This document shows, piece after piece, positions 40,110 to 45,482 of a DNA stretch of 64,000 nt. The stretch lies in the NCBI RefSeq assembly GCF_029227855.1, contig NZ_CP074356.1, one strand, 5' to 3'. The DNA is from Escherichia coli. Its GTDB lineage: Bacteria > Pseudomonadota > Gammaproteobacteria > Enterobacterales > Enterobacteriaceae. Position 1 is the first letter of the stretch; the number at the start of each line of letters is the position of its first letter. Both the position numbers and the translations under genes were made by a program. The notes under the pieces were generated by a model. The model saw only the letters and a list, made by a program, of their open reading frames with translations. It did not search any database and was not told the DNA's origin.

Positions 40110-42350
40110 ATGAACAAGAAGATTCATTCCCTGGCCTTGTTGGTCAATCTGGGGATTTATGGGGTAGCACAGGCACAAGAGCCAACCGATACTCCTGTTT
40201 CACATGACGATACCATTGTCGTTACCGCCGCCGAGCAGAACTTGCAGGCACCTGGCGTTTCGACCATCACCGCAGATGAAATCCGCAAAAACCCGGTTGC
40301 CCGCGATGTGTCGGAGATCATCCGTACCATGCCAGGCGTTAACCTGACCGGTAACTCCACCAGTGGTCAGCGTGGGAATAACCGACAGATTGATATTCGC
40401 GGCATGGGTCCGGAAAACACGCTGATTTTGATTGACGGCAAGCCGGTAAGCAGCCGTAACTCGGTGCGTCAGGGCTGGCGTGGCGAGCGCGATACCCGTG
40501 GTGATACCTCCTGGGTGCCACCTGAAATGATTGAACGTATTGAAGTTCTGCGTGGTCCGGCAGCTGCGCGTTATGGCAACGGCGCGGCGGGCGGCGTGGT
40601 TAACATCATTACCAAAAAAGGCAGTGGTGAGTGGCACGGCTCGTGGGACGCATATTTCAATGCGCCAGAACATAAAGAGGAAGGTGCCACCAAACGCACT
40701 AACTTTAGCCTCACCGGTCCGCTGGGCGACGAATTCAGCTTCCGCTTGTATGGCAACCTCGACAAAACTCAGGCTGACGCGTGGGATATCAACCAGGGCC
40801 ATCAGTCCGCGCGTGCCGGAACGTATGCCACGACGTTACCAGCCGGGCGCGAAGGGGTGATCAATAAAGATATTAACGGCGTGGTGCGCTGGGACTTCGC
40901 ACCATTACAATCGCTGGAACTGGAAGCAGGTTACAGCCGCCAGGGTAACCTGTATGCGGGCGATACCCAGAACACCAACTCTGACTCCTATACCCGCTCG
41001 AAATATGGCGATGAAACCAACCGTCTGTATCGCCAGAACTACTCGCTGACCTGGAACGGCGGCTGGGATAACGGCGTGACCACCAGCAACTGGGTGCAGT
41101 ACGAACACACCCGTAACTCGCGTATTCCGGAAGGTCTGGCGGGCGGTACCGAAGGGAAATTTAACGAAAAAGCGACACAGGATTTCGTCGATATCGATCT
41201 CGATGACGTGATGCTGCACAGCGAAGTTAACCTGCCGATTGATTTCCTCGTTAACCAGACGCTGACGCTGGGTACGGAGTGGAATCAGCAGCGGATGAAG
41301 GACTTGAGTTCCAACACCCAGGCGCTCACCGGGACGAATACCGGCGGCGCTATTGATGGCGTGAGTGCCACCGACCGTAGCCCGTATTCAAAAGCAGAAA
41401 TTTTCTCGCTGTTTGCCGAAAACAATATGGAGCTGACTGACAGCACCATCGTAACGCCGGGGCTGCGTTTCGATCATCACAGCATTGTTGGCAATAACTG
41501 GAGTCCGGCTCTAAACATATCGCAAGGTTTAGGCGATGACTTCACGCTGAAAATGGGCATTGCCCGTGCTTATAAAGCGCCGAGTCTGTACCAGACTAAC
41601 CCAAACTACATTCTCTACAGTAAAGGTCAGGGCTGCTATGCCAGCGCGGGCGGCTGCTATCTGCAAGGTAATGATGACCTGAAAGCGGAAACCAGCATCA
41701 ACAAAGAGATTGGTCTGGAGTTCAAACGCGACGGCTGGCTGGCGGGTGTGACCTGGTTCCGTAACGATTATCGCAATAAGATTGAAGCGGGCTATGTGGC
41801 TGTAGGGCAAAACGCAGTCGGCACCGATCTCTATCAGTGGGATAACGTACCGAAAGCGGTGGTTGAAGGTCTGGAAGGATCGTTAAACGTACCGGTTAGC
41901 GAAACGGTGATGTGGACCAATAACATCACTTATATGCTGAAGAGTGAAAACAAAACCACGGGCGACCGTTTGTCGATCATCCCGGAGTATACGTTGAACT
42001 CAACGCTGAGCTGGCAGGCACGGGAAGATTTGTCGATGCAAACAACCTTCACCTGGTACGGCAAGCAGCAGCCGAAGAAGTACAACTATAAAGGTCAGCC
42101 AGCGGTTGGACCGGAAACCAAAGAAATCAGTCCGTACAGCATTGTGGGTCTGAGCGCGACCTGGGATGTGACGAAGAATGTCAGTCTGACCGGCGGCGTG
42201 GACAACCTGTTCGACAAACGTTTGTGGCGTGCAGGTAATGCCCAGACCACGGGCGATCTGGCAGGAGCCAACTATATCGCCGGTGCCGGGGCGTATACCT
42301 ATAACGAGCCGGGACGTACGTGGTATATGAGCATTAATACTCACTTCTGA
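40110..42350 (+). CDS. fepA: Ferric-enterobactin TonB-dependent outer-membrane receptor FepA, 746 aa
   Basis: ORF 40050..42350 (upstream GTG); start taken at ATG 40110 (MNKKIHSLALLVNLGIYGVAQAQE... signal peptide); TonB box DTIVVTA; C-terminal aromatic residue. Confidence 0.95.
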   Translation: MNKKIHSLALLVNLGIYGVAQAQEPTDTPVSHDDTIVVTAAEQNLQAPGVSTITADEIRKNPVARDVSEIIRTMPGVNLTGNSTSGQRGNNRQIDIRGMGPENTLILIDGKPVSSRNSVRQGWRGERDTRGDTSWVPPEMIERIEVLRGPAAARYGNGAAGGVVNIITKKGSGEWHGSWDAYFNAPEHKEEGATKRTNFSLTGPLGDEFSFRLYGNLDKTQADAWDINQGHQSARAGTYATTLPAGREGVINKDINGVVRWDFAPLQSLELEAGYSRQGNLYAGDTQNTNSDSYTRSKYGDETNRLYRQNYSLTWNGGWDNGVTTSNWVQYEHTRNSRIPEGLAGGTEGKFNEKATQDFVDIDLDDVMLHSEVNLPIDFLVNQTLTLGTEWNQQRMKDLSSNTQALTGTNTGGAIDGVSATDRSPYSKAEIFSLFAENNMELTDSTIVTPGLRFDHHSIVGNNWSPALNISQGLGDDFTLKMGIARAYKAPSLYQTNPNYILYSKGQGCYASAGGCYLQGNDDLKAETSINKEIGLEFKRDGWLAGVTWFRNDYRNKIEAGYVAVGQNAVGTDLYQWDNVPKAVVEGLEGSLNVPVSETVMWTNNITYMLKSENKTTGDRLSIIPEYTLNSTLSWQAREDLSMQTTFTWYGKQQPKKYNYKGQPAVGPETKEISPYSIVGLSATWDVTKNVSLTGGVDNLFDKRLWRAGNAQTTGDLAGANYIAGAGAYTYNEPGRTWYMSINTHF

Positions 42351-42388
42351 TGCTAACGTCAGATTGTTGACAAAGTGCGCGTAGTTCA

Positions 42389-42487
42389 TGCCGGATGCGG
42401 CGTGAACGCCTTATCCGGCCTACAAAAATCTTGCCAATTCAATATATTGCAGGACCACGTAGGCCTGATAAGCGTAGCGCATCAGGC
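42389..42487. repeat. REP/BIME element (two palindromic units) in the fepA-entD spacer
   Basis: GCCGGATGCGGCGTGAACGCCTTATCCGGCCTAC and GTAGGCCTGATAAGCGTAGCGCATCAGGCA are canonical enterobacterial REP palindromic units. Confidence 0.85.
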
Positions 42488-42524
42488 AGTTTTGCGTTTG
42501 TCATCAGTCTCTAATATGGTCGAC

Positions 42525-43145
42525 ATGAAAACTACGCATACCGCCCTCCCCTTTGCCGGAAATACGCTGCATTTTGTTAAGTTCGATCCGGCGAGTTTTT
42601 GTGAGCAGGATTTACTCTGGCTGCCACACTACGCGCAACTGCAACACGCTGGACGTAAACGTAAAACAGAGCATTTAGCCGGACGGATCGCTGCAGTTTA
42701 TGCGCTGCGGGAATATGGCTATAAATGTGTGCCCGCAATCGGCGAGCTACGCCAACCTGTGTGGCCTGCGGGGGTATACGGCAGTATTAGCCACTGTGGG
42801 GCTACGGCATTAGCCGTGGTATCTCGTCAACCGATTGGCATTGATATTGAAGAAATTTTTTCTGCGCAAACAGCGGCAGAATTGACAGACAACATTATTA
42901 CACCAGCAGAACACGAGCGACTCGCAGAATGCGGTTTAACCTTTTCTCTGGCGCTGACACTGGCATTTTCCGCCAAAGAGAGCGCATTTAAGGCAAGCAA
43001 GATACAGGCCGCTCAAGGTTTTCTGGATTATCAGATAATTAGCTGGAATAAACAGCAGATCATCATTCGACTAGAGGATGAGCAGTTTGCTGTGCACTGG
43101 CAGATAAAAGAAAAAATAGTCATAACGCTGTGCCAACACGATTAA
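42525..43145 (+). CDS. entD: Enterobactin synthase 4'-phosphopantetheinyl transferase EntD, 206 aa
   Basis: ORF 42375..43145 reads through the REP element and is over-extended; start taken at ATG 42525 (MKTTHTALPFAGNTLHFVKFDPASF...); an ATG 9 nt upstream (42516, MVDMKTT...) is an alternative. Confidence 0.85.
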   Translation: MKTTHTALPFAGNTLHFVKFDPASFCEQDLLWLPHYAQLQHAGRKRKTEHLAGRIAAVYALREYGYKCVPAIGELRQPVWPAGVYGSISHCGATALAVVSRQPIGIDIEEIFSAQTAAELTDNIITPAEHERLAECGLTFSLALTLAFSAKESAFKASKIQAAQGFLDYQIISWNKQQIIIRLEDEQFAVHWQIKEKIVITLCQHD

Positions 43146-43266
43146 TTGACAACATCTGGTACGATTCGCCCGCAGCCATTACTGACCGCGGGCGAAAGTG
43201 TAAAGCAGGTGCCTTACCATCCTGACCTGACAACCGGATATGCGGGGATTGCTCCCCGCACAACGG

Positions 43267-43419
43267 CTACTTCTTCGGTTCGTAAGCGAGAACAGCCTTA
43301 AACTCAATATTACGTTCCTTCACCGTAAACTCACACAGCGAGTCGCGGACCAGAAGCGTAAATCCCAGCACCGTTAAACACAGCACTATGACTGCCACAA
43401 GGGCATATTTCGTCAGCAT
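43267..43419 (-). CDS. hokE: Hok-family membrane toxin, copy A, 50 aa (Arg at position 25)
   Basis: ORF 43267..43455; Hok start at ATG 43419 with GGAGG Shine-Dalgarno: [50 protein letters not shown]. Confidence 0.8.
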
Positions 43420-43519
43420 GTTTATATTGCCTCCATGCGAAGAAGGGACTACCATCCGAGTTGTTCAGGTTTGGGTAGGTAGCCCCAGGGTTGATAGAAA
43501 TATCGTCCTGGGGCTTCAT
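43331..43519 (-). CDS. mok-like overlapping reading frame of hok copy A, 62 aa
   Basis: ORF track 43331..43519 ([20 protein letters not shown]...), starts upstream of hok and overlaps it out of frame, the arrangement known for mok in hok/sok loci. Confidence 0.4.
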
Positions 43520-43670
43520 CTTTCCAGACCTCAGAGTTAACCTGAAACCGGAAAGCTTCAGGCACCCGCCGTTATCTTACCCTTCCTCAGCAAAATAGCT
43601 GTTTATTTATACAGTGAATCCTGTTTCGGACTTCTGTTGGCAAAACTGATCATTGCCCTTAAAACGACAT

Positions 43671-44139
43671 CGCCCGCAGCCATTGCTGACCGCGGGCGAA
43701 AGTGTAAAGCAGGTGCCTTACCACCCTGACCTGACAACCGGATATGCGGGGATTACTCCCCGCACAACGGCTACTTCTTCGGTTCGTAAGCGAGAACAGC
43801 CTTAAACTCAATATTACGTTCCTTCACCGTAAACTCACACAGCGAGTCTCCGACCAGAAGCGTAAATCCCAGTACCGTCAAACACAGCACTATGACTGCC
43901 ACAAGGGCATATTTCGTCAGCATGTTTATATTGCCTCCATGCGAAGAAGGGACTACCATCCAAATTGTCTGGTTTGGAGTGGCAGCCCCAGGGTTGATAG
44001 AAATATCTCCTGGGGCTTCATCTTTCCAGACCTCAGAGTAAACCTGAAACCGGAAAGCTTCAGGCACCCGCCGTTATCTTACCCTTCCTCAGCAAAATGG
44101 CTGTTTATTTATACAGTGAGTCCTGTTTCGGACTTCTCA
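43671..44139 (-). other. hok/sok-type type I toxin-antitoxin locus, copy B (hokE-like), boundaries approximate
   Basis: Tandem direct repeat of copy A with a 504-bp period; same stem-loops; differs by several substitutions and small indels in the mok/leader region. Confidence 0.8.
43771..43923 (-). CDS. hokE: Hok-family membrane toxin, copy B, 50 aa (Gly at position 25)
   Basis: ORF 43771..44067; Hok start at ATG 43923 with GGAGG Shine-Dalgarno: [50 protein letters not shown]. In this copy the upstream frame is fused in-frame to hok. Confidence 0.8.
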
Positions 44140-44354
44140 CTCCTAATTTGATCAACTGAAGCTGAACCCGTTTTTTTCTGCATGCCTCAATCGTCAAAAT
44201 TCTTCGCCACCAGCCAGCTCTGCCATAACTTGTCACATTGCAAAAGTAGCCAAATTGCTTCAGTCACCATCACCAAAAAAAAGAAACATTCCAGAACTTC
44301 CGCATCTCGCCCAGCCGCTCCGACTTCTATACTGAATAGAAAACGCCAACATAA

Positions 44355-45482
<1,128 letters not shown>

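Follow-up and report, generated by a model that had tools for sequence, protein, structure and literature searches.

Architecture of the entD-hokE-ybdK interval

The window, the whole 64-kb stretch of Escherichia coli DNA analysed here, includes the interval between the phosphopantetheinyl transferase gene entD and ybdK, in which two hok/sok units lie in tandem on the strand opposite to both genes (Table 1). entD ends with a TAA stop codon at 43143-43145, and the first hok repeat begins at 43166 after a spacer of 20 bp; both positions agree with the preliminary description of this DNA. The two units are spaced 502-504 bp start to start, with segment identities of 88-97% in the repeat finder. 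The complete RefSeq genome of strain JNEC-KY178 is 100% identical to the window over 42500-44400 (1901 bp) and is annotated with the same gene order: entD, hokE, hokE, ybdK.

K-12-type IS186 (IS4 family; 1.34 kb, 23-bp terminal inverted repeats, insL transposase) is absent from the window: blastn with K-12 IS186B as the query gave no match anywhere in the 64 kb, which bears out the earlier claim that no IS lies between entD and hok here. With zero copies of IS186 in the window, both hok/sok units keep every recognisable part. We describe the interval, with high confidence, as an IS-free entD-hokE-ybdK segment in which two type I toxin-antitoxin units, hokE/sokE, stand in tandem and are apparently complete. 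Where the window has two hok units, K-12 has one, a difference absent from the preliminary description.

On the other side of entD, the intergenic region that separates it from fepA (approximately 42380-42490) is filled with REP/BIME-like palindromic repeats, which read gccggatgcggcg...cttatccggcctac and gtaggcctgataagcg....

Table 1. Features of the entD-hokE-ybdK interval in window coordinates.
Feature	Position	Strand	Basis
fepA, upstream of entD	40110-42350	+	
entD, phosphopantetheinyl transferase	42525-43145	+	ORF list, JNEC-KY178 RefSeq annotation, blastn
Spacer, 20 bp, entD stop to hok repeat	43146-43165	.	Identical spacer in K-12
hok/sok unit 1, entD-proximal tandem copy	43166-43635	-	Direct repeat, unit blastn, Rfam RF01794
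hok mRNA 1, predicted full length	43567 to 43166	-	Rfam position 1 and fold
3'-terminal hairpin of hok mRNA 1, 13-bp stem	43166-43195	-	Inverted repeat, MFE fold
fbi element copy 1, AGGCACCU in RNA	43207-43214	-	MFE and centroid folds
Unoccupied IS186 target copy 1, GGGGATTGCTCCCC hairpin	43244-43257	.	K-12 junction comparison
hok-1 CDS, 50 aa, intact	43267-43419	-	Pfam PF01848; RefSeq name hokE
mok-like leader (proposed), in-frame upstream AUG, 62-aa ORF, copy 1	43267-43455	-	
Sok-1 promoter (putative), TTGCCT, 17-nt spacer, TACCAT	43427-43432, 43450-43455	+	
Sok-1 antisense RNA	43463-43523	+	Alignment to annotated K-12 sokE
tac element, 5' end of hok mRNA 1, GGGUGCCU	43560-43567	-	Rfam, fold
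Joint of the two tandem units, 34 bp, diagnostic of the duplication	43636-43669	.	
hok/sok unit 2, ybdK-proximal	43670-44137	-	Repeat, Rfam RF01794, fold
hok mRNA 2	44069 to 43670	-	Rfam RF01794, fold
3' hairpin of hok mRNA 2	43670-43699	-	Terminator-like, with U-run
fbi element copy 2	43711-43718	-	Fold
Unoccupied IS186 target copy 2, GGGGATTACTCCCC	43748-43761	.	K-12 junction comparison
hok-2 CDS, 50 aa	43771-43923	-	Pfam PF01848
Sok-2 promoter (putative), TTGCCT, TACCAT	43931-43936, 43954-43959	+	
Sok-2 antisense RNA	43967-44025	+	Alignment to annotated K-12 sokE
tac element of hok mRNA 2	44062-44069	-	
ybdK, far-side flanking gene	44364-45482	+	ORF list, JNEC-KY178 annotation, blastn

Components of the two hok/sok units

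Both predicted toxins belong to the HOK_GEF family (Pfam PF01848; 39.8 bits for hok-1 and 34.0 bits for hok-2, cutoff 22), and RefSeq gives the name HokE to proteins identical to each of them. The hok-2 protein is the form found in most strains compared, while hok-1 differs from K-12 HokE by G24R, a substitution also present in E. whittamii. In both copies, codon 46 of Hok reads UAC, with G as the next base (GCUUACGAACCG; minus strand, 43279-43282 and 43783-43786); in hokE mRNA, this tyrosine codon has been reported to undergo A-to-I editing to cysteine (bioRxiv 10.1101/2025.08.07.668861).

The hok leader model RF01794 matches both units over its full length (1-157), with 83.7 bits for unit 2 and 76.0 bits for unit 1 (43411-43567) against a gathering score of 59. 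The model puts the 5' ends of the mRNAs at 44069 and 43567, where the sequence begins GGGUGCCU.... In predicted MFE and centroid folds of both mRNAs, each about 400 nt long, nucleotides 1-8 pair with the fbi octamer AGGCACCU (nucleotides 354-361 in hok mRNA 1), and the fbi element is followed by a terminal hairpin of 13 bp. The folds have z-scores of -7.4 for copy 1 and -7.25 for copy 2, and none of 100 shuffles folded equally well. Of the two 3' hairpins, only that of copy 2 scores as terminator-like, with a U-rich stretch (UGUCGUUUUA) after it; copy 1, the entD-proximal one, has no U-run behind its hairpin.

In both units, the Sok RNA aligns to K-12 sokE and has a hairpin and a U-run, as judged by sequence, and the promoter element TTGCCT-17-TACCAT is the sequence that stands upstream of annotated K-12 sokE. 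The Sok promoters were placed by this identity and by eye, and the hok promoters were left unassigned; a consensus promoter scan of 43100-44400 returned no sigma-70-like sites. An in-frame AUG lies 12 codons upstream of hok in both units (at 43959 in copy 2), and in K-12 the annotation of mokC makes it an N-terminal extension of hokC in the same frame. By analogy, we infer that this AUG is the start of a mok-like leader in both units. An out-of-frame candidate for mok, a 62-aa ORF at 43331-43519, matches no Pfam family and lacks conservation in copy 2; it is also disfavoured because K-12 mokC is annotated in frame with hokC, and the in-frame AUG was adopted.

The IS186 site in K-12 and its empty equivalents

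The gene order in K-12 MG1655 is ybdK, sokE, hokE (607836-607988), IS186B (608007-609351), and entD (609459-610079). The preliminary description, which put an IS186 copy between entD and hokE in K-12, is thus correct at the level of gene order, but not about the place that it gave, as K-12 and the window are colinear across 43146-43166. Taken literally, the K-12 alignment contradicts it there, since K-12, too, has no IS186 at that junction. The entD-side flank of K-12 aligns unbroken through entD and the spacer and on to window position 43256, and the hokE-side flank resumes at 43245 (copy 1) or 43749 (copy 2), so the interval is colinear with an IS-excised K-12.

IS186B is a 1339-bp element with a 10-bp duplication, GGATTACTCC, on both sides, and its junctions read, base by base, ...GCGGGGATTACTCC / CATAAGCGCTAACTTAAGGGTTG...IS186...CAACCCTTAAGTTAGCGCTTATG / GGATTACTCCCCGC.... 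Each window unit holds the 10-bp target in a single copy: GGATTGCTCC at 43246-43255 in unit 1 and GGATTACTCC, identical to the K-12 duplication, at 43750-43759 in unit 2. In K-12, IS186B struck a GGGG-N6-CCCC hairpin 9 nt past the hokE stop codon; window positions 43246-43255 lie 11 nt from the hok-1 stop codon, in the hok 3' UTR. IS186 in K-12 is therefore inside the hok transcription unit, in its 3' UTR, and not between entD and the hok locus; the empty site lies some 100 bp deeper into the locus than 43146-43166. It also lies between the stop codon and fbi. In K-12, IS186B cuts the fbi element and the 3'-terminal hairpin off from the hok coding region, while coding region and fbi remain joined in both window units.

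Within the 64 kb of the window, GGGG-N6-CCCC has just two occurrences, one per hok 3' UTR. In MG1655, each of the three IS186 copies occupies a motif of this form and is flanked by a 10-bp duplication: IS186B at hokE (target GGGGAGTAATCCCC, read on the hok strand), IS186A at hokC (target GGGGAGTGATCCCC), and IS186C between nupC and pdeA (target GGGGATAATTCCCC). In 2001, saiSree, Reddy and Gowrishankar reportedly described an IS186 hotspot in the lon promoter and a consensus target for the element, which is said to be a palindrome of a G-run, a short spacer, and a C-run that is struck recurrently. The three K-12 sites fit this consensus and so support it. From these comparisons, the GGGG-N6-CCCC hairpin is a preferred IS186 target, and both window sites are unoccupied hotspots. 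The lon promoter and hokE share the same IS and the same kind of preference for a G-run/C-run palindrome; unlike the lon promoter hotspot, the hokE target is a hairpin that encodes RNA structure in a toxin 3' UTR, and it is unoccupied here.

Comparison with known hok/sok systems

The closest known system is K-12 hokE/sokE (b4415/b4835) with IS186B (insL2, b0582), which occupies the same position between ybdK and entD. With the IS excised, the K-12 unit is 96-98% identical to the window units and has the same Sok promoter. K-12, however, has one hokE unit that is split by IS186B in the 3'-UTR hairpin, whereas the window has two uninterrupted tandem units. The paralogous K-12 hokC(gef)/sokC locus, which lies elsewhere on the chromosome beside dnaJ and is absent from the window, has a homologous GGGG-N6-CCCC hairpin after its stop codon, occupied by IS186A with a 10-bp duplication and in the opposite orientation relative to hok.

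The units resemble hok/sok of plasmid R1 in their Hok/Gef-family toxin, RF01794 leader, cis-encoded antisense Sok, and, in the predicted folds, tac/fbi pairing of the 5' and 3' ends, the mechanism described for R1 hok mRNA (PMC9841398). They differ in that the window units are chromosomal, with a mok arrangement that we propose from sequence, while R1 hok/sok is plasmid-borne. Tandem hokE units are also found in E. coli W, O157:H7, and 55989; these have the two-unit arrangement of the window with only allelic differences, among them a varying order of Sok-region haplotypes.

IS186 occupancy in E. coli and other Escherichia

To place the window among other strains, we counted junctions in 5426 complete E. 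coli genomes from RefSeq, a biased set with many laboratory and outbreak clones. The IS186 junction was present in the K-12 orientation in 1727 of the 5426 genomes and in the opposite orientation in 286/5426, and an uninterrupted target site was present in 3646/5426; these figures tally junctions rather than whole entD-ybdK configurations. By the same junction counts, IS186 is at the hokE site in about 37% of the 5,426 genomes and absent from it in about 63%.

The entD/hok junction itself is as in the window in 4749 of the 5426 genomes. In 629/5426, for example AR_0081, a sugar-utilisation island of about 11 kb separates entD from the first hok unit, at the equivalent of 43146-43165; the window is without it. 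The island carries genes for two transketolase subunits, a sugar-binding regulator, an FGGY kinase, a ribose-type ABC transporter, and two SDR oxidoreductases, and it changes the 3' end of entD, which becomes 660 bp long instead of 621 bp. Another element is found on the hok leader side: strain XPF_3 (locus L005, 3867-5236) has IS150 between hokE and ybdK besides its IS186, and IS150 occurs between hokE and ybdK in some K-12-like genomes.

Insertion into both tandem copies can be seen in the O104:H4 strain 2009EL-2071 (locus L008, 3167-6837), where IS186/IS421 sits in the same hairpin of each hokE unit and every copy is flanked by the duplication GGATTGCTCC. With the IS excised, they match the units of strain 55989, which carry no IS, at 100% identity. 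IS186 insertion at hokE is thus recurrent: it has occurred in both orientations and, in O104:H4, in both tandem copies.

For other lineages, hokE units in the entD-ybdK context were retrieved with a 20-mer from the hok leader. E. albertii and Escherichia sp. E1V33 have one hok unit, and E. whittamii, strain SCPM-O-B-8794, and Escherichia sp. MOD1-EC7003 have two; all five of the genomes retrieved are free of IS186 at hokE. The 20-mer also matched a Paenibacillus radicis contig exactly (locus L012, 4541-4560), but this contig is otherwise without similarity to the hok locus; as a collection this large should yield about 0.5 exact 20-mer matches by chance, we regard this match as a chance one.

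The IS-free hokE is the ancestral and common state in E. coli, and K-12 is a derived form, because five other lineages are IS-free, the window target is single-copy, and insertion is recurrent. The suggestion that this strain keeps an uninterrupted, possibly ancestral configuration thus holds for the IS, with the site misplaced by about 100 bp.

Tandem duplication and allele shuffling

The joint of the two units, searched with a 60-mer across it in distant mode, is present in 2397 of the 5426 genomes (44%). A megablast search with the 60-mer counted only 756 genomes and was set aside as an undercount, because joints of the O157 and 55989 type carry 5-6 mismatches, which break every 28-nt word. 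Since the joint is found in 2397 genomes and E. whittamii has two units, the tandem duplication is old as well as common, and the single unit of K-12 is one of several states; single-unit genomes that are IS-free also exist, such as ExPEC XM. Previous reports noted that E. coli W has more than one hokE (PMC3032704) and that hok genes form "islets" of 2-6 copies by local duplication, with copy number varying in Enterobacteriaceae (bioRxiv 10.1101/2025.08.07.668861).

The two window copies differ at about 4% of positions. In the Sok-encoding part (43463-43505 versus 43967-44007), three haplotypes occur, and their order varies among strains: alpha-beta in the window, beta-alpha in AR_0081, gamma-alpha in 55989, and gamma-beta in O157. 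The varying order implies that alleles have been shuffled, through unequal crossover or recombination. Between Sok-1 and Sok-2 of the window, the 5' tails show about 5 differences. In E. whittamii (locus L011, 3773-4441), approximately 670 bp between the second hok unit and ybdK cannot be aligned to the window, which suggests a small insertion or replacement.

Alternative explanations

The empty target sites could in principle be secondary, if IS186 once occupied the hokE hairpin in an ancestor and was later removed by precise excision or by recombination with an IS-free allele. The region is mosaic, so replacement of an allele is plausible, and the site is filled in some 37% of complete genomes. 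We nevertheless think loss very improbable: both units have a clean single target copy and no scar, none of the five non-K-12 Escherichia lineages retrieved carries the IS, the recent event in the pair 55989 and O104:H4 was a gain rather than a loss, and a site never filled is the more parsimonious reading. That errors of assembly, such as the collapse of an IS or the false expansion of a repeat, produced the empty site, the duplication, or the two together is scarcely credible. Tandem repeats of about 500 bp and a multicopy IS are classic sources of misassembly, but the identical JNEC-KY178 sequence comes from an independent complete genome, the joint recurs in thousands of complete genomes (2397), and copies that diverge by about 4% are not one sequence duplicated in error.

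A different question is whether the absence of IS186 is functionally neutral, the hokE units being decaying relics with or without it. This is possible, though we consider it rather unlikely. The IS-free chromosomal hok loci that have been tested gave no killing, and hok islets vary from 2 to 6 copies in Enterobacteriaceae (both bioRxiv 10.1101/2025.08.07.668861); in addition, 37% of genomes tolerate disruption at the hokE site. On the other hand, every one of the 17 Hok ORFs examined, from several E. coli strains and the five Escherichia lineages, is intact with its full 50 aa, a point against simple decay. The conserved leader structure, fbi, hairpins, and Sok promoter point to purifying selection, and HokE served as a toxic control in an assay of 45 homologs (bioRxiv 10.1101/2025.08.07.668861).

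Functional interpretation

Beyond the anatomy, insertion site, polarity, and population frequency, which were observed, we infer a regulatory consequence of the insertion and the possible biological activity of the loci. In K-12, IS186B has transposed into the GGGG-N6-CCCC hairpin past the hokE stop codon, making the 10-bp target duplication and parting the hok coding region from the 3' fold-back-inhibition (fbi) element and terminal hairpin. Under the R1 model, pairing of the 5' and 3' ends would keep the full-length mRNA stable, untranslated, and blind to Sok until the 3' end is processed. Because neither hotspot was struck in the window, each hok mRNA could still form the tac/fbi closure, and each unit appears to retain the other parts of the system: a 50-aa Hok ORF, a mok-like in-frame start, and a Sok promoter with its Sok RNA.

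The preliminary description held that the uninterrupted state matters for whether the locus is functional. This is reasonable insofar as the IS severs fbi and the 3' hairpin in K-12, but less so in view of published tests of IS-free loci: chromosomal hokA (E. coli C), hokC (ECOR24), and hokB (K-12) showed neither post-segregational killing nor activation by rifampicin (bioRxiv 10.1101/2025.08.07.668861). The same study (bioRxiv 10.1101/2025.08.07.668861) used HokE, already characterised in the literature, as a toxic control when 45 homologs were assayed by expression; no more than three other sequences lacked toxicity. Because the tested IS-free loci gave no killing, intact may still mean inert, and the hokE units of the window may be inert or may have some other role.

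It is conceivable, but quite unlikely in our estimation, that the hairpin after the hokE stop codon is a recurrent IS186 trap whose occupation is selected, rather than reflecting target preference alone, and that the two window modules are partly orthogonal. What points this way is that the site is filled in about 37% of genomes, in both orientations, and that both tandem copies can be filled independently. If so, both hokE/sokE modules would remain fully armed in IS-free strains such as this one, and the diverged recognition tails of the Sok RNAs (about 5 positions) could let each Sok control only its own hok.

Implications

That strains are polymorphic at hokE is already known, and this strain has the common, underived state. 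hokE/sokE, its interruption by IS186 in K-12, the target preference of IS186, and tandem hok copies have likewise been described, and IS elements close to hok reading frames in K-12 are reported to be absent from wild-type cells (PMC7337300). Only the population-scale picture, of recurrent and bidirectional IS186 insertion into one RNA hairpin, is mildly new.

The absence of IS186 here also takes away one local substrate on which IS-mediated deletion of the neighbouring ent/fep iron-uptake cluster could act. [quoted passage not shown] For reference work on the regulation of hokE or on type I toxin-antitoxin systems, an IS-free strain is advisable, K-12 being derived. The usual hokE of E. coli is uninterrupted and often duplicated, and the chief value of this finding is correct annotation of the locus.
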